Shown here: piece by piece, positions 14,929-40,349 of the stretch
Position numbering within the stretch: position 1 is the first letter of the stretch
How the letters are laid out: every line of letters starts with the position of its first letter
Virus genome (UHGV): UHGV-0037043
Reading direction: 5' to 3' (one strand)
DNA: 42,524 bases
Source of the DNA: a virus
The notes under the pieces: model-generated
Seen by the model: only the letters and a program-made list of their open reading frames with translations
What the model was told of the DNA's origin: nothing
Databases searched by the model: none
Made by a program: the position numbers and the translations under genes

Positions 14929-14992
14929 ATTCAAATGGGTAATTACCTTACTATGCAAATTTAAAGTCCTTAGAATCTCTCTCAGAGACACA
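14898..14992. repeat. Copy 2 of the ~93-bp direct repeat. It overlaps the 3' end of the GH13 gene and encodes its last ~17 aa.
   Basis: Aligned by eye with 13108..13200. Confidence 0.7.
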
Positions 14993-16219
14993 TAAATCTT
15001 TATAATACTGTGTTAATGCTGGATTATTATTCCAAGTTATGATTTGTCTTGCATTGTCTCTTGAAATTTTATTAGCTGTCATTTTAGCATCTTCATAAGT
15101 CATACCTAAATTGACAAAATCATTTGTCCTGCTAATGGTCTCAGGCTCTCTACTATTAACTACAGTATTTACCATTCCAGTTTCTTGTCCGTTGTAAATC
15201 AATTTATGACCATTATGTGAGAAAACCAAGTCTGCTAATTCATAGTGACTCATGTTCATCATGTCATAAGCGCATGCAATGTCATGTGATTGGATGTAGC
15301 TCACATTTGAGTCACCCAATACCTCAGACCATTCTGTCATTTTAGCAATCGCTTCTGGTACAGCTAAATCATTCCCAACACCTCTTACTTTAAAGGGTGT
15401 TAGATGTTCAAATGAGATGAGGCAATCAAAGTAACCTTTATCAATCCATTGTCTAGCCCCTACTGCGTTAATACCATTAGCTTCACCCATCAGGAAAGCG
15501 CATGGCTTAATATTGTAAATCTGATTACTTAATTGTTCTAGGTAACCCTCAAGTTTTGGTGCGCATTTATAAGGTGCTCCTTTGTCTCCTGGAGTCTTTT
15601 CAGTATCCCATGAACCTTTAGCCATATGTGTTACTGCATCAATTCTGTAGCCATCAATGTTCATTTCATTAAGCCAAAACTCGTTAATGTCTTGCCAGTA
15701 ATCCCATACGTCTGGATTGTCAAAGTTCCAATCAATTTGACCTTCTGTGAAAGCGTGGAAAACATACTTATTAATGGATGATTCATATTTCCAAGCACTG
15801 CCTCCAAAAATAGCCTCCCAATTGTTCTGTGGTTCATCATAGAAATGGAACATATCTTGACTACGTTTATCGCCCTGTAATGCTTTTTGATAGACTTCAT
15901 TTTCAATAGAACAATGGTTTATTACCAAGTCCATTAAAATCTTAATATCATTCTTATGTGCTTCTTCAATTAAGTCTTTCATATCATTTAAAGTACCAAA
16001 CTTAGGGTCAATTGATTTATAGTCTGAAACATCGTAACCATTGTCGTATCCAGATGATGGGTAACATGGACTTAACCAGAGTGCTTCGTATCCCATTTCT
16101 TTGAAGTACGGTATGTTGCTGATAATTTGTTGTAAGCCACTCCATTGTGTGGGGTAAATTTGATAGATAATCACGGTCATTTCCTCCCTATTTAAATTCG
16201 TCCCATTTATTTGGTGCAA
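14951..16219 (-). CDS. GH13 alpha-glucosidase-like glycoside hydrolase (oligo-1,6-glucosidase-like), C-terminally truncated; moron.
   Basis: GH13 regions are all present: I DLVINH, II GYRIDAV, III MGEANG, IV QSHD, plus YQIYP and WLSPCY..NGYDVSDY. At 422 aa it is ~130 aa shorter than typical family members and lacks domain C. Confidence 0.7.
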   Translation of the reverse strand: MHQINGTNLNREEMTVIIYQIYPTQWSGLQQIISNIPYFKEMGYEALWLSPCYPSSGYDNGYDVSDYKSIDPKFGTLNDMKDLIEEAHKNDIKILMDLVINHCSIENEVYQKALQGDKRSQDMFHFYDEPQNNWEAIFGGSAWKYESSINKYVFHAFTEGQIDWNFDNPDVWDYWQDINEFWLNEMNIDGYRIDAVTHMAKGSWDTEKTPGDKGAPYKCAPKLEGYLEQLSNQIYNIKPCAFLMGEANGINAVGARQWIDKGYFDCLISFEHLTPFKVRGVGNDLAVPEAIAKMTEWSEVLGDSNVSYIQSHDIACAYDMMNMSHYELADLVFSHNGHKLIYNGQETGMVNTVVNSREPETISRTNDFVNLGMTYEDAKMTANKISRDNARQIITWNNNPALTQYYKDLCVSERDSKDFKFA

Positions 16220-36180: not shown

Positions 36181-36570
36181 ATGCCACAAAGAATATGTGC
36201 TGAACCAACATGTAGAGCAAGAGTAGATATTCCAGAAAGATATTGTGAACAACACAGAGGTCACTCAGATAAGCAGTACAATAAACATGTGAGGACTAAT
36301 GACTTCAATAAGAAGTACAATGACTTCTATCACAGTAGTCAATGGACTAAGACTCGTAAGGCTAAGCTTATGGAGCAACCACTATGCGAGGTATGCTTGG
36401 CACAAGGACGTATGACCAAGGCTGATATGGTGCATCACATCATTGAGTTAAGAAGTCCAAACGGATGGGAACACAGATTAGATATGAATAATTTAGAATC
36501 AATCTGTTATCCTTGTCACAACAAAGAGACTCACAGATACAGTTGGAAGAATGGTGGTAGAAATTTTTAA
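36181..36570 (+). CDS. HNH endonuclease (terminase-associated, cos-type).
   Basis: Zinc ribbon plus HNH core (...VHHIIELR...N...CYPCHNKETH), immediately upstream of the cos-like region and terS. Confidence 0.75.
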   Translation: MPQRICAEPTCRARVDIPERYCEQHRGHSDKQYNKHVRTNDFNKKYNDFYHSSQWTKTRKAKLMEQPLCEVCLAQGRMTKADMVHHIIELRSPNGWEHRLDMNNLESICYPCHNKETHRYSWKNGGRNF

Positions 36571-36844
36571 GCCAGCCATAAAATATTTTCTGACCAGCGC
36601 TAAAAATATTTTACCCCCCTACCTTTTTTACTCAGCCTAATCGCTGATGACTCTTCTTCACACGAATTTCTAAAAATGAACTTTCAAAAACGCCCTTTTC
36701 CCCTCGTAAACGTGATTTAAACCTGGTTTCTTGTGTTGAAAATCAAGACTTACCACTATATGTAGTATGTTATTTCTCTTATACGATTGTTCCCTTAGTA
36801 AACACGATTGACCCCTGGTTTCTCAACACAGTCTTTTGGAAGTA
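36571..36844. other. Putative cos / terminase-recognition region.
   Basis: Non-coding; direct repeats ccagcCATaaaatatttt / ccagcGCTaaaaatatttt (36573-36612); C-rich tacccccctacc (36611-36623); repeats gtaaacRYGATTnAnCCCTGGTTTCT (36706-36743 and 36798-36834). Lies between the HNH and terS, as in cos phages. Confidence 0.4.
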
Positions 36845-36853
36845 TGATATAAT
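36845..36853 (+). promoter_or_regulatory. Extended -10 promoter TGATATAAT upstream of 36911/HNH/terS.
   Basis: Direct reading. Confidence 0.4.
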
Positions 36854-36910
36854 AAACACTATAGGGGAGATGCGCTTAAGTGTCAACAATAAAGTAAGGG
36901 AGGTAGAAAA

Positions 36911-37096: not shown

Positions 37097-37426
37097 ATGG
37101 CAGAACAGTGGAAGACAATTCCAGGGTATCCTAATTATAAAGTTTCAACAAACGGTCGTGTATTAGCTACAGACGGTATAAAACAAACACAAATTAAACC
37201 GTATGAGAAAGACCATGGGTACTTATGTGTAGACTTATATAAGAATGGTCAACGCACAGGTAAGAGAGTTCATGTGTTAGTGGCTGAAGCGTTTCTTGGT
37301 GGTAAAAAAGACGGATTTACTGTAGACCATAAAGACCGCAATAGACATAATAATAAGGTGTCAAATCTCGTTTGGTCAAGTGTATCAGACCAGAACAAAA
37401 ACAGAACATCATGGGCTAAGGAGTGA
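37097..37426 (+). CDS. HNH_3/AP2-type homing endonuclease.
   Basis: WKTIPGYPNYKVSTNGRV...VHVLVAEAF...VDHKDRNRHNNKVSNLVW motifs. Confidence 0.7.
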   Translation: MAEQWKTIPGYPNYKVSTNGRVLATDGIKQTQIKPYEKDHGYLCVDLYKNGQRTGKRVHVLVAEAFLGGKKDGFTVDHKDRNRHNNKVSNLVWSSVSDQNKNRTSWAKE

Positions 37427-37430
37427 TAAA

Positions 37431-37895
37431 ATGGCAAGACCAAGGAAATTACTAAACGCACAGAGCGGAAACTTAACAGTTGAACAACGTGAAGAGCGTG
37501 AGAAAGAGGAGGAAGTTTTATATAACTACGATAAATTAGATTTTAGTTTTTATCCGCCAGGATTACTACCACAAGCGTTCAACGAGTGGGATAGAATTGG
37601 CGCATACGTTGGAGACCTCCCCATCTCAGAACTAGACGTTAACACTGTAATTAGATATTGCAACTATAATTATCTATATGGTGAAGCAACTGAACGAGTA
37701 GCACAAGAAGGTGCGGTGGATATGGAAACAGGTAAAGCAAATCCTTGGGTTGCTGCAATGAACTCATATTCTAAAGAACTAAAATCTGCAACAAATGATT
37801 TAGGGTTAACAATCAACTCAAGGTTAAAAATTGTTTTACCATCAGAAAAAGAAAAAGAAGTAATTGACCCATTGGCAAAAATGTTTGAGGGATAA
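37431..37895 (+). CDS. terS: Terminase small subunit (P27 family). Start at ATG 37431 after an AAGGAG RBS.
   Basis: MARPRKLLNAQSGNLTVEQ...; ~155 aa; upstream of terL. Confidence 0.7.
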   Translation: MARPRKLLNAQSGNLTVEQREEREKEEEVLYNYDKLDFSFYPPGLLPQAFNEWDRIGAYVGDLPISELDVNTVIRYCNYNYLYGEATERVAQEGAVDMETGKANPWVAAMNSYSKELKSATNDLGLTINSRLKIVLPSEKEKEVIDPLAKMFEG

Positions 37896-37917
37896 GCTAC
37901 ACAAACTAAGAATTTTG

Positions 37918-37926
37918 TGTTATAAT
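37918..37926 (+). promoter_or_regulatory. Extended -10 promoter TGTGTTATAAT, 20 nt after the terS stop.
   Basis: Direct reading. Confidence 0.45.
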
Positions 37927-37933
37927 ATATTCA

Positions 37934-38531
37934 AGCGAGTATGGGGGCGCCTCTTAACAATGCGTACCACCCCATGCCAATAAACTTAATATTGGAATTG
38001 GGGCGTATTTCTTCGGATTGCGCTTGTCCTACAGCATGCTTGTTGTAGGATATACATAGTGGGTGGCATCTAAGACACCTCTTGTGACACCGCAAGCAAG
38101 AGTATGCCAAAACGTGTGGGTACACTCGCACTGTGACGGAGTTGGAAACCTTAACCGTCAGCGGTAAAGTTTCAGGGTAATAGTCATTACTTTAAAACCT
38201 GTAAAGGTAGTTGCGACCCAGTGACTGAGAGCACGCATGCAGCTCTGCAAAGCAACAACATTGGCTATCTAGTCATAGCCCTGATACCTGATCTGTCCCC
38301 ATTGGACACAGTAAGGGAGATTCTGTATTACAGTGGAACGCCACCACTTTAAAAAAGGTTCCGTGTACGGCACACGTAAACGACCGTTCGCTATGGTATC
38401 TAGCGTATGCGTGATAGTATGACCCTCTTTGACGACAAGCACGACAAATGCAGTTAGCCACATAACAGAGGGCGTGGAAACCTGCAGATACTAACCTCCC
38501 ACTAGTCTAGCTAACTAGTGGGTCTTTTTTT
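37934..38531 (+). ncRNA. Candidate large structured non-coding RNA (~600 nt), class unassigned (ROOL/GOLLD-like?).
   Basis: GC ~48-50% against ~33% in the flanks. No RBS-preceded ORF on either strand. Has its own promoter and a perfect-stem terminator. Multiple local helices. Confidence 0.45.
38498..38531 (+). terminator. Intrinsic terminator closing the GC-rich unit.
   Basis: cccactagt-ctagctaa-actagtggg: perfect 9-bp stem, then TCTTTTTTT. Confidence 0.8.
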
Positions 38532-38532
38532 A

Positions 38533-38541
38533 TGCTATAAT
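38533..38541 (+). promoter_or_regulatory. Extended -10 promoter TTTTTTATGCTATAAT for terL.
   Basis: Direct reading, followed by AAAAGGAGGA RBS and the ATG at 38574. Confidence 0.5.
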
Positions 38542-38573
38542 ATACTTGACTAGCAGAAAAGGAGGATACATAT

Positions 38574-40349
38574 ATGTTTGACCCAGTACAAGATTATGTA
38601 GATTTAATTGAAAAAGGATATGTAGAAGGTAGGAAATACATTGTTGAAGATGGCAAATATAAGACAATTAAAGTTGATGTTCGTGTAGGAACAAAAATTA
38701 AAAAGGCTATTGAACGCCACCAACGAGAAGTTGAATTATCTAAAACACCAGAGTATCCATATATTTATAGACCAGAAGAATCACTTCCAGTCATTAGATT
38801 TATGGAAATGCTACCTGACCCAAAAAGTCGTAAACCAATGAAGTTAGCTACCTTCCAAAAATTCATCATTGGGTTACTATATGGTTGGCGTAAAAAGAGA
38901 GATAATACTAGACGTTTTAGAAAGGCATATATCTCACTAGCACGTAAGAACGGTAAATCACTACTGGTTTCAGGAATCGCACTATATGAGTTTCTATTTG
39001 GTAAAAACCCAGCAGCCAGCCGTCAAGTTGTTGCTGCAGCAAATACTAAGGAGCAAGCAGGTATTGTTTTTAGAATGCTCAAATCTCAGCTAACAGCACT
39101 ACGTAGCGTTTCAAAAGAAGTTAAGAAAAGAACCACTGTTCGCAGATATGATATTGAAGCTAGTGATGAGTCAACAGTTAAACCACTATCAAGTGACGCT
39201 GACACACTAGACGGACTAGACGTGTTATGTGGCATTTTAGATGAATATGGCGAAGCGAAAGACACTGCTATTATTGAAGTATTAGAATCATCACAAGCCC
39301 AACAATTAGAAGGTTTAATTTTAATGATATCTACAGCTACCAAAAACCTAAATGGACCAATGTACACAATAGATTATCAATTTGTTGATAAGCTACTCAA
39401 CGAAGAAGTCAAAGGAGATGCGTATCTTGCATTATGTTGGGAGATGGATAGTCTATCAGAAGTAGATGATGAAGCTAACTGGATAAAAGCAAACCCTTTA
39501 CTGGAAATACCAGAAGCGTATGAGTCAATGATGGAACATAAACGCAACTCACTTGATGAATATAAAGGTAAAATGGACTTATCAGGATGGTTAACAAAAG
39601 AAGAAAATTTCTGGGTTCAATCATCTAAAGATAGTTTTGTAACCAAGGAAGAGTGGGATGCAATTAAAGCACCAAAGAAATACGATATTAAAGGACGTAA
39701 AGTATACATTGGCTTAGACATCGCTAGAACATCAGACATGACTGCCGTCTCATGGATTATCCCTATTGAAGAAGAGCACAAACTACTACTGGACACGCAT
39801 GGTTTCGTATCATCAGTTGGTGGTATAGACCATAAACAAGCTATTGACAAAATACCATATAGACAATATGAGTCAATGAACCTCATTCATATTTCTCAAC
39901 GTGAGGACGGCTTAATTGATACAGAAGAAATGTGTGATTGGATAAGAGACTTTATAGATTACAACGAGTTACAGTTAATTGGTATTTATTATGACCCATT
40001 CATGATGGATAAAGCGTTAATTAATTTAAGTAAAACGTATCCTAAAAAACTAATTGAAGTACCTCAGAAAATTAACTATTTATCATCACCAACAAGAGCG
40101 TTACGTGAGCTCATTCGCAGAGATGAAGTTATTCACACAAATAACCCTTTGTTAAATCGTGCAGCCTACAACGCAATGATTAAAGAGTATAATGACAGTG
40201 TGGCAATAGATAAAGGTATGAATAGGAACAAAATTGACCCTATTGATGCTGTGATAAATGCCATGAGTGATGCTCAATATCATGATTTTGACGCACCAAC
40301 ATTGCAAGATTTACTTGATAGTGGAGAATTTGGCTTTGGGTATGCTTAA
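38574..40349 (+). CDS. terL: Terminase large subunit.
   Basis: 591 aa; Walker A-like LARKNGKS; Terminase_1-like layout with a C-terminal nuclease region. Confidence 0.85.
   Translation: MFDPVQDYVDLIEKGYVEGRKYIVEDGKYKTIKVDVRVGTKIKKAIERHQREVELSKTPEYPYIYRPEESLPVIRFMEMLPDPKSRKPMKLATFQKFIIGLLYGWRKKRDNTRRFRKAYISLARKNGKSLLVSGIALYEFLFGKNPAASRQVVAAANTKEQAGIVFRMLKSQLTALRSVSKEVKKRTTVRRYDIEASDESTVKPLSSDADTLDGLDVLCGILDEYGEAKDTAIIEVLESSQAQQLEGLILMISTATKNLNGPMYTIDYQFVDKLLNEEVKGDAYLALCWEMDSLSEVDDEANWIKANPLLEIPEAYESMMEHKRNSLDEYKGKMDLSGWLTKEENFWVQSSKDSFVTKEEWDAIKAPKKYDIKGRKVYIGLDIARTSDMTAVSWIIPIEEEHKLLLDTHGFVSSVGGIDHKQAIDKIPYRQYESMNLIHISQREDGLIDTEEMCDWIRDFIDYNELQLIGIYYDPFMMDKALINLSKTYPKKLIEVPQKINYLSSPTRALRELIRRDEVIHTNNPLLNRAAYNAMIKEYNDSVAIDKGMNRNKIDPIDAVINAMSDAQYHDFDAPTLQDLLDSGEFGFGYA

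Follow-up and report, generated by a model that had tools for sequence, protein, structure and literature searches.

A modular, covarying RNA locus between the terminase genes of Enterococcus phages opens with an apparent orphan abiF-type hairpin

What is encoded in the long gap between the two terminase genes of the virus genome UHGV-0037043? We analyzed the whole stretch of 42,524 nt (hereafter, the window), in which terS (small terminase, 154 aa; 37431–37895, + strand, ATG at 37431) and terL (large terminase, 591 aa; 38574–40349, + strand) are separated by 678 nt (37896–38573). The identity of terS is supported by the homologous 465-nt coding sequences of relatives, which are annotated as terminase small subunit. 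A first-pass annotation had described the gap as GC-rich and non-coding, and both descriptions proved right. Its GC content is 44.7%, compared with 35.2% for the whole window, and reaches 47–48% in 200-nt windows of the gap core. The longest open reading frame (ORF) on either strand is 66 aa, and none is conserved among the relatives, which differ from one another by 1–2-nt indels and by module replacement. A 29-aa ORF starting with GTG (38333–38422), with a weak AAGGGAG 12 nt upstream, was rejected; it is missing wherever the variable insert described below is missing. A search for tRNA and tmRNA found none. Tandem repeats were likewise not found in 37896–38573, the sole call (AGAAAA × 2.7, 37844–37859) falling within terS, and direct repeats in the gap are limited to its two promoters and a single 21-nt pair. 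Contrary to the earlier claim, a further long non-coding block lies nearby, a stretch of 340 nt (36571–36910) with the cos site and a promoter. Because terS and terL are both full length, here and in the relatives, the gap cannot be read as an intron, as the first-pass annotation had also argued.

The gap has the layout of a transcription unit of its own on the + strand. A promoter-like site (37898–37926) directly follows the terS stop codon and is kept in all relatives read. It consists of a −35-like TACACA (37898–37903), a 17-nt spacer and TATAAT with an upstream TG, the extended −10 element being TGTTATAAT (37918–37926); it matches at 10 of 12 positions, and seven further sites of the window are built alike. 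Transcription is predicted to start at about 37933. At the other end lies an intrinsic terminator (38498–38531), a GC-rich 9-bp stem with a 7-nt loop (38498–38522) followed by a T run to 38531. The terminator stem covaries in 27 sequences, in which the outer pairs alternate among CCCAC/GUGGG, CUCCC/GGGAG and CUCAC/GUGAG, and the inner 19 nt are invariant. The downstream edge of the unit is marked by the promoter-like site of terL, TGCTATAAT (38533–38541), and its ribosome-binding site AAGGAGG (38559–38565), which are conserved in relatives. The comparison thus upheld the promoter, the terminator and the separate terL promoter that had been proposed earlier, the two promoters as sequence-based predictions. 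The transcript of ~600 nt and both its ends are predicted from these signals. A literature search found neither a transcriptome of this phage group nor a description of an RNA from the terS–terL gap.

Comparison with ~40 related Enterococcus phage loci revealed that the + strand RNA is a mosaic of independently assorting modules. Among close relatives, modules are present, absent, duplicated or replaced, 1–2-nt indels occur between loci, and the length of the RNA ranges from 399 to 785 nt. Two of the modules, which we call M2 and E, are found without the 5′ hairpin in many relatives, and E is duplicated in KEN21. The Efquatrovirus relatives carry a different RNA body: only the promoter, the 5′ hairpin and the terminator-promoter layout are shared with them, and a model of domain E (R1) found no match in their gaps. 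Three modules, namely the 5′ hairpin, M2 and E, showed compensatory changes well above slid-partner controls. The earlier proposal of a structured non-coding RNA is therefore borne out by the alignment of relatives, for the + strand. Folding energy of the whole region was not unusual (z = −1.6 for the + strand and −1.2 for the − strand), and stability z values of the whole RNA and of single modules (+0.4 to −1.7) were uninformative, so the case for structure is built on covariation and not on thermodynamics. The minimum free energy (MFE) fold recovered the 5′ hairpin and missed the covariation-supported fold of E. Two long-range pairings from a repeat finder, one between the hp4 loop and the E loop and the other between the 5′ edge of M2 and a terminator arm, are not kept in relatives and were discarded.

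Downstream of the 5′ hairpin, the MFE fold predicts two hairpins (37977–37995 and 38002–38025; region 37977–38025) that are common only to the closest relatives, L001, L003 and L005. The following hairpin, UCCUACA-loop-UGUAGGA (38027–38050, inverted repeat I1), had already been picked out as a helix; it is kept with small changes in DELF1, KEN21, KEN18, GEC9, L026 and L033. Domain M2 (38060–38165) was defined from an alignment of 15 sequences (A3). Its helices are P1a (38065–38069/38104–38108), P1b (38079–38084/38097–38102) with the invariant loop UGACACCGCAAG, the variable hairpin P2 (38114–38125), and P3 (38134–38139/38155–38160) with the invariant loop AGUUGGAAACCUUAA. In this alignment, 94.5% of cells were paired and seven pairs changed compensatorily, compared with 0–3 in the slid-partner control. 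The covarying TGACGG/CCGTCA pairing of P3 takes the place of an aaacctt/aaagttt helix that had been proposed there. M2 may also form a pseudoknot between ACCGC (38089–38093) and GCGGU (38161–38165), both arms of which are invariant. The variable insert (38166–38352) is common only to vB_EhiS_268 and, in part, to DELF1 and SSBHU. Hairpins are predicted in it, without comparative support, at 38263–38280, 38294–38308 and 38332–38348; the ggctat/atagcc hairpin reported earlier does exist, at 38263–38280 and not at 38269–38286.

Domain E (38353–38497), defined from an alignment of 27 sequences (A2), comprises H1 (38362–38376), H2 (38389–38393/38401–38405), Pa (38409–38413/38440–38444), S2 (38450–38461/38474–38485) and a loop-loop kissing interaction of CCCUCU (38423–38428) with AGAGGG (38467–38472). 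Here 94% of cells were paired, and 13 pairs changed compensatorily, compared with 0–2 for slid partners. The H2 loop GUAUC (38396–38400) possibly pairs with GAUAC (38487–38491); this pairing is 100% pairable, with one-sided changes only. The nucleotides joining the helices, GUGAUAGUAUGA, UUGACGAC and CAGAUAC, are invariant. G·U cells outnumbered A·C cells by 33 to 8, and this excess favors an RNA of the + strand. Domain E was found in all relatives of the clade, and its overall distribution is very narrow: one phage clade and five metagenome contigs, with 0 contigs in a pattern search of bacterial genomes. A BLAST search of plasmids gave no match to M2 and only chance matches to E. M2 and E are new, phage-specific RNA folds, well supported by comparison, with candidate tertiary contacts.

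The first module of the RNA is a hairpin at 37941–37975 (+9 to +43 relative to the predicted start). It has the outer stem AUGGGG/CCCCAU, the inner stem CGC/GCG, the 11-nt loop CUCUUAACAAU and the 3′ internal loop UACCA. Judged by sequence and fold, it is an abiF-type motif: the motif has an outer stem of ~6 bp with an asymmetric 3′ internal loop, as found here, and 37948–37964 reads CGC-CUCUUAACAAU-GCG, in agreement with the inner stem and the 11-nt loop consensus CUCUYAACRAU. Among six phage versions of the hairpin, 92.6% of cells were paired and seven of nine pairs changed compensatorily, including all six outer-stem pairs and an inner-stem pair that turns from G-C to A-U in Vaquero and Ef212. 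In an Rfam search of 37800–38650 at E ≤ 10, the only meaningful match was a sub-threshold one to the abiF family (RF03085), and matches to SNORA81, ncS025, PVX_3, mir and DnaX were set aside as chance. The window hairpin scored 19.9 bits as a partial match (E = 1), below the gathering cut-off of 37 bits; the best phage copy, the phiSHEF4 homologue, reached 31.1 bits across the entire length of the model, still below the cut-off. In the position where an abiF leader would precede an Abi_2 gene, the downstream gene is terL. No Abi_2 gene was detected in the phage, either by Pfam in 10 large ORFs or by a custom Abi_2 hidden Markov model (HMM) in every stop-to-stop ORF of 80 aa or more, and the motif would thus be an orphan. 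This assignment gives the locus a concrete and testable function, which the first-pass annotation had overlooked.

The 17-nt core of the hairpin, CGCCUCUUAACAAUGCG, recurs unchanged in at least 120 bacterial genomic copies, whose outer stems covary and whose 3′ loop reads NACCA. Four genomic copies with the identical core scored 38–46.5 bits on RF03085, above the gathering score. In many bacteria such hairpins immediately precede genes for Abi_2 (AbiF) toxins, abortive-infection proteins of the HEPN family: according to the custom HMM, an Abi_2 ORF lies at most 800 nt downstream in 60 of 108 bacterial core copies, and all five downstream ORFs tested were Pfam Abi_2 (E 1e-52 to 1e-57). BLAST of the loop also found matches just 5′ of genes for ‘Abi family protein’ on plasmids of Bacteroides, Legionella and Metabacillus. 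Enterococcus is the commonest genus among plasmids with Abi_2 homologues (48 of 419 records), and its plasmid Abi_2 leaders carry hairpins of the same design as the phage hairpin; in those examined, the loop is longer and divergent from the phage core. A scan of IMG/VR gave 110 usable viral copies of the core, of which only 4 were followed by an Abi_2 ORF. Orphan hairpins with the identical core are common in other viral contigs lacking the toxin gene, and one orphan abiF sRNA has been reported in the lytic cyanophage S-CREM1 (PMC9964418).

The abiF-motif RNA RCd22 of C. difficile is a trans-acting antitoxin that binds and neutralizes AbiF; it requires two motifs and the intervening region, and its first motif spans +9 to +41 from the start site (PMC12373285). 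The phage hairpin resembles it in the 6-bp outer stem, 3′ internal loop, 3-bp inner stem and 11-nt loop, in its placement ~9 nt past a sigma-A-type start site (predicted here), and in a unit that ends in an intrinsic terminator. It differs in that the phage has no Abi_2 gene anywhere, in having one motif instead of two followed by ~520 nt of other structured RNA, and in scoring below the Rfam cut-off. Antitoxin mimicry by phages has precedents in the pseudo-ToxI of PhiTE (PMC3475682) and in orphan DarG-like antitoxins (PMC11825919). As in PhiTE, the phage RNA resembles the RNA antitoxin of a host Abi toxin in the absence of the toxin itself, and by analogy the expected action would be the same, namely toxin sequestration; the target here would be an AbiF/Abi_2 HEPN protein instead of ToxN, and a single hairpin stands in place of tandem 36-nt repeats. 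In S-CREM1 the orphan motif, likewise unlinked to a toxin gene, stands alone as a 37-nt match that exceeds the Rfam threshold, whereas here it forms the 5′ module of a long RNA composed of several parts. The literature search turned up no paper that reads abiF RNAs as anti-defence elements.

We therefore offer as the best explanation, at a probability of about 45%, that the gap RNA serves anti-defence, is transcribed independently and neutralizes AbiF-like toxins of the host through its orphan antitoxin hairpin. The gap would be a gene complete in itself, its product a folded non-coding RNA of ~600 nt built from modules, running on the + strand from a host-type promoter to the terminator at 38498–38531. 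Produced by the phage during infection, the RNA would fill the RNA-binding site of host AbiF-like toxins with its hairpin, so that they would stay inactive once the antitoxin RNA of the host decays. With the toxin held inactive, the cell would avoid suicide and the phage would complete its cycle. M2 and E may serve as stabilizing or scaffolding bodies or as binding sites for other partners. The decoy reading is favored by the nearly identical placement of the hairpin and the first RCd22 motif relative to their start sites, and the occurrence of the hairpin in just a subset of both phage clades fits the expectation for an accessory counter-defence part. Against it, M2 and E, most of the conserved RNA, are left functionally unexplained, M2 and E being without plasmid counterparts and E without counterparts in bacterial genomes. 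The single motif, where RCd22 needs two, and the RF03085 scores below 37 bits also count against it, and among the Enterococcus plasmid leaders examined there was no cognate host target with the exact core. Finally, placement in the late operon would deliver the RNA late, unless its promoter is constitutive.

Among known RNA classes, the first-pass annotation had pointed to the large ornate RNAs ROOL and GOLLD. Such an RNA, which adopts one large fold and assembles by itself into a multimeric particle, would agree with the size of several hundred nt, the GC enrichment in an AT-rich genome, the association with phages of low-GC Firmicutes and the separate transcription unit, and the covarying loop-loop pairing of E could in principle be intermolecular. 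The resemblance did not withstand comparison. Neither the window nor any of 10 related loci contained a match to an Rfam family at its gathering threshold, and on this ground ROOL, GOLLD and introns were set aside; the covariance models of ROOL, which we take to be among the 4227 Rfam families, and of GOLLD, presumably included as well, gave no match in these loci, nor at E ≤ 10 in 37800–38650. The phage RNA is moreover a mosaic of variable length in one Enterococcus phage group and not one conserved ornate fold, and the folding energy of the whole molecule is ordinary, which leaves this explanation improbable. Rfam likewise gave no match to group I or II introns, and no host gene is interrupted; in Lactobacillus phage LJ, terS and terL lie 42 nt apart with no residue missing. 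A ToxI-like type III antitoxin RNA does not fit either, as there is no tandem array of 34–50-nt repeats and no toxin gene downstream. There is a small chance that E is a new self-cleaving ribozyme or small-molecule aptamer, processing a terS-RNA-terL transcript or sensing a metabolite. Its compact pseudoknotted core, covarying helices, invariant joining nucleotides, two candidate tertiary contacts and position directly 5′ of the terminator would suit such a role; against this, no known ribozyme or riboswitch family matched, E is confined to one phage clade and five metagenome contigs, and no gene is under its obvious control, since terL has its own promoter. The position within the packaging module, between terS and terL, may instead suggest a DNA packaging signal (cos/pac or a terS binding site) or a packaging RNA similar to the pRNA of phi29. 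The database record of vB_Efm_LG62 is linearized inside the gap, and the loop-loop pairing of E recalls pRNA ring formation. Yet Rfam gave no match to pRNA, and the phage has terS, terL, HNH genes and a cos site, whereas pRNA belongs to phages that lack terS and package protein-primed DNA; terminase-plus-HNH cos phages are not known to depend on a packaging RNA. The excess of G·U over A·C cells also speaks for RNA and not duplex DNA, and a cos/pac site in the gap was rejected because the experimentally mapped terminus of IME-EFm1 (PMC4445525) aligns to ~36657 of the window, 1.25 kb upstream. We regard a packaging role as very improbable.

Could the RNA instead be a cis-acting 5′ leader of terL and the downstream genes of the late operon, with folds that decide whether RNA polymerase stops at 38498–38531, in the manner of a riboswitch, antitermination, put or EAR-like element? 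The unit always lies immediately 5′ of terL, E adjoins the terminator in every relative, bacterial abiF RNAs are also leaders ending in terminators, and RCd22 itself acts in cis as well, by premature termination (PMC12373285). In addition, 38057–38066 could pair with the terminator's 5′ arm at 9 of 10 positions, like an antiterminator. This pairing is missing, however, where M2 of relatives starts with UAGGUGG, and the conserved pseudoknotted fold of E has no conserved alternative pairing with the terminator beside it. The conserved extended −10 promoter and ribosome-binding site of terL lie past the terminator, DELF1 and EF36P1 carry an extra gene between terminator and terL, and the upstream modules are swapped freely. 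A leader function is thus unlikely, in our view. It is also hard to credit that the gap is a functionless mosaic of recombination and homing-endonuclease scars in a hot spot by the cos site, where hairpins are tolerated. HNH genes are variably present on either side of the gap, with one inside it in DELF1, and modules are shuffled or, like E in KEN21, duplicated. Such scars would not explain why ~94% of pairs are kept by compensatory changes in 15–27 divergent sequences, why loops are invariant and promoter and terminator conserved, or why the abiF core agrees with functional bacterial copies at 100% of its positions. An extension of the anti-AbiF decoy, which we consider rather unlikely, is that each module is bait for a different RNA-binding immune effector of the host: AbiF/Abi_2 toxins in the case of the abiF hairpin, other effectors in that of M2, E and the Efquatrovirus bodies.

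The Abi_2/HEPN family is thought to be ancestral to Cas13. Mimicry of an RNA antitoxin by a phage has one classic example, the laboratory-selected pseudo-ToxI of PhiTE, and the RNA antitoxin of AbiF was characterized only in 2025 (PMC12373285). If our preferred reading is true, a natural orphan abiF hairpin heading a phage transcript would represent RNA counter-defence against a widespread toxin family. If the multiple-bait reading is true, phages would swap RNA cassettes as they swap anti-defence genes, and orphan viral abiF hairpins would be the simplest members of a widespread, unrecognized class of RNA counter-defence. The phages concerned are under development for therapy against E. faecium and E. 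faecalis, in which plasmid-borne Abi genes are common. The locus adds two new and well-supported RNA folds, M2 and E, and it draws attention to an identical hairpin that viral contigs commonly carry in the absence of the toxin gene.

The window is essentially the entire genome of a virulent Enterococcus siphophage with late genes running along the + strand and early ones along the - strand; the closest database relative, vB_EhiS_268, is 94% identical across the terS-terL gap. This gap, between terS (37431-37895) and terL (38574-40349), is 678 nt long, with a GC content of 44.7% (47-48% in its core) versus 35.2% for the window, and its ORFs reach at most 66 aa, none of them conserved. A promoter-like site (37898-37926; TACACA-17-TATAAT with an upstream TG) immediately follows the terS stop in all relatives read, and a terminator (38498-38531; 9-bp stem and T run) is followed in all relatives by the terL promoter TGCTATAAT and its RBS. 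The first-pass annotation of a non-coding, GC-enriched gap with its own promoter and terminator was thus confirmed, and two of the helices that it named needed small corrections. The promoter-like site of the gap belongs to a set of about eight in this genome that share one design, (T)CAACAC or TACACA, 17 nt, and then TGnTATAAT (2501, 3172, 25003, 35244, 36845, 37918, and 42329 on the + strand; 21546 on the - strand). The terL site (38533) and two others have no -35 box and are placed after a terminator T run instead. Within the terminator hairpin, the inner 19 nt (38503-38521; ACTAGTCTAGCTAACTAGT) contain four CTAG and are changed in only two of 27 sequences, by one base each, whereas the outer pairs covary. 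Because this inner sequence occupies the expected -35 region of the terL promoter, it may double as a protein operator.

Comparison with 13 annotated relatives and about 25 IMG/VR or metagenome contigs revealed that the gap, unannotated in all of them and 399-785 nt long, is a mosaic of modules behind a universal promoter. The stretch 37935-38060 is common to a few relatives only, about half carry the RNA domain M2 (38060-38165; about 105 nt), 38166-38352 is limited to the closest relatives, and every relative of this clade has the 3' RNA domain E (38353-38497) with the terminator (together 38353-38531). DELF1 and EF36P1 carry an additional gene inserted 3' of the terminator. Phages of the sister genus Efquatrovirus (phiSHEF4, ZAT1, Vaquero, and others) have in common with this clade the gap promoter, the first hairpin, and a terminator with a promoter behind it, but fill a gap of similar size with a different body. 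The gap is absent from a Lactobacillus phage whose terL is related. E matched no bacterial genome and five metagenome contigs, and plasmids gave no credible match to M2 or E; judged by these matches, both domains are confined to this phage group. In phage KEN21, E is tandemly duplicated (1810-2169 of the locus), the terminator of the first copy lacking a T run and being fused to hairpin H1 (38362-38376 in the window) of the second. A 77.5-kb IMG/VR contig (L031, 24-850) harbors the 5' half of E, an M2 fragment, and then E. The record of vB_Efm_LG62 (OP018674.1) begins at the equivalent of window position ~38401, inside hairpin H2 of E; this linearisation point is probably an assembly artefact, not a physical end.

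The fold of E was tested on 27 distinct sequences and comprises the terminator, the hairpins H2 (38389-38405) and Pa (38409-38444), the long hairpin S2 (38450-38485), and six base pairs that join the Pa loop to the S2 loop (CCCUCU/AGAGGG). In this fold 94% of cells were paired and 13 pairs had changed on both sides, versus 24-48% and 0-2 pairs when partners were slid by 1-3 columns. The H2 loop could also pair with the 3' tail in every sequence, with one-sided changes only. For M2 (helices P1a, P1b, P2, and P3; 15 sequences), 94.5% of cells were paired, with seven compensatory pairs versus 0-3 with partners slid, and in P3 three adjacent pairs were swapped together. G.U cells outnumbered A.C cells (33 to 8 in E, 12 to 2 in M2), which fits + strand RNA, not duplex DNA or the opposite strand. 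Because the aligned sequences come from a few lineages, significance is inflated in the shuffle controls; the folds are better supported by the slid-partner controls and by several positions at which multiple pair types occur. M2 and E are the parts of the gap with the clearest purifying selection. We conclude that the gap is very probably a transcribed, structured, and modular ncRNA gene. Two long-range complementarities, an antiterminator-like one between the M2 5' edge (38057-38066) and the terminator 5' arm (38495-38504; 9 of 10 positions) and one of 10 bp with one G.U between the loop of hairpin 38027-38050 (38037-38046) and the Pa loop (38432-38441), are not conserved, for example, in the relatives L033 and L006.

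The only Rfam match in the gap worth closer inspection was abiF (RF03085; gathering score 37), which covered the first hairpin (37941-37975) with 19.9 bits over part of the model; the homologous phiSHEF4 hairpin scored 31.1 bits over the full model length. At least 120 contigs of bacterial genomes, spread over many phyla, contain exact copies of the 17-nt hairpin core (CGCCTCTTAACAATGCG, 37948-37964). Nearly all of these copies form the same hairpin, in which the outer stem (6-7 bp) covaries and the 3' loop reads NACCA. An ORF of Abi_2, the Pfam family of AbiF abortive-infection toxins, lies within 800 nt downstream in 60 of 108 usable bacterial copies (custom HMM); all five downstream ORFs tested by Pfam were Abi_2 (E 1e-52 to 1e-57), and four Abi_2-associated genomic hairpins scored 38-46.5 bits on RF03085. 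BLAST with the loop sequence found matches just upstream of 'Abi family protein' genes in Bacteroides, Legionella, and Metabacillus plasmids. Among six phage versions, seven of nine pairs showed compensatory change. Judged from its sequence, the window hairpin has the structure that defines the abiF motif; it falls below the Rfam cut-off and, above all, lacks the gene context, as no Abi_2 gene is present in the phage. With the end of the -10 element at 37926, the predicted start is ~37933 and the hairpin lies at +9 to +43. [quoted passage not shown]

The identical core was also found as canonical hairpins in at least 120 IMG/VR contigs, with an Abi_2 ORF downstream in only 4 of 110 usable viral copies, so that orphan abiF hairpins may be common in phages. 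Genes downstream of the viral copies include major capsid, scaffold, CHAP lysin, and sulfotransferase genes. On Enterococcus plasmids, Abi_2 genes are abundant (48 of the 419 plasmid records with Abi_2 homologues). Two leaders of such genes, on E. faecium plasmid NZ_CP064428 (L297, 424-480) and E. faecalis plasmid pT90-6 (L298, 490-548), carry abiF-like hairpins that have an enlarged loop and a U run behind them and that the Rfam abiF model misses. A stretch about 470 nt upstream of the E. faecalis Abi gene matches the drum RNA motif in part and below threshold (L298, 1-88; 35.2 bits versus a gathering score of 43).

The main alternative is a cis-acting leader or attenuator of terL. Its constant position and the terminator fit such a role, but terL has a separate promoter and genes are inserted 3' of the terminator; we consider it unlikely. 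The first-pass annotation had suggested a likeness to ROOL and GOLLD, which did not hold up: Rfam 15 gave no family at gathering score in the window or ten related loci and only three weak matches at E<=10 in the gap, leaving ROOL, GOLLD, introns (also proposed for checking), pRNA, riboswitches, and known ribozymes unmatched. A self-assembling RNA of the ROOL/GOLLD kind is therefore very improbable, and we give equally little weight to a new ribozyme or aptamer in E. No tRNA or tmRNA gene was found, the gap has no tandem repeats, and folding energy is ordinary for the whole region and its parts alike. A functionless recombination scar, which the mosaic layout might bring to mind, is scarcely plausible beside the covarying folds. 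The same low weight falls on a packaging signal or pRNA analogue. The terminal sequence of the relative IME-EFm1, mapped by experiment (PMC4445525), aligns to window ~36657, which places the probable cos site (36640-36680; CGCTGATGA/CTCTTCTTCACACGAATTTC matches the mapped sequence) about 1.25 kb upstream of the gap and not within it, in a 340-nt ORF-poor block flanked by two HNH endonuclease genes (36181-36570 and 37097-37426). Elsewhere in the genome, the neighbor of the amidase endolysin gene encodes a 422-aa alpha-amylase-family protein (14954-16219, - strand; PF00128, E 9e-73), which is unusual in a siphophage this small.

We tentatively favor, with a probability of roughly 0.45 and by analogy, a role of the gap RNA as an anti-AbiF decoy. 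This reading draws on precedents for antitoxin mimicry (PMC3475682, PMC11825919), on the patchy, accessory-like distribution of the hairpin in both phage clades, and on the abundance of Abi_2 on Enterococcus plasmids, with leader hairpins built to the same plan. Points against it are that the loops diverge in the two Enterococcus leaders, that RCd22 uses two motifs where the phage has one, and that the reading accounts for only ~35 nt of a 600-nt RNA. The abiF motif and the antitoxin-mimicry idea are already known; neither Rfam nor the searchable literature describes the composite RNA, its new domains M2 and E, its placement in the terminase module, or its orphan context. The simplest reading of an orphan antitoxin RNA in a virulent phage is counter-defence: the phage would supply the antitoxin hairpin during infection, and AbiF-like toxins of the host would be kept bound and inactive throughout.
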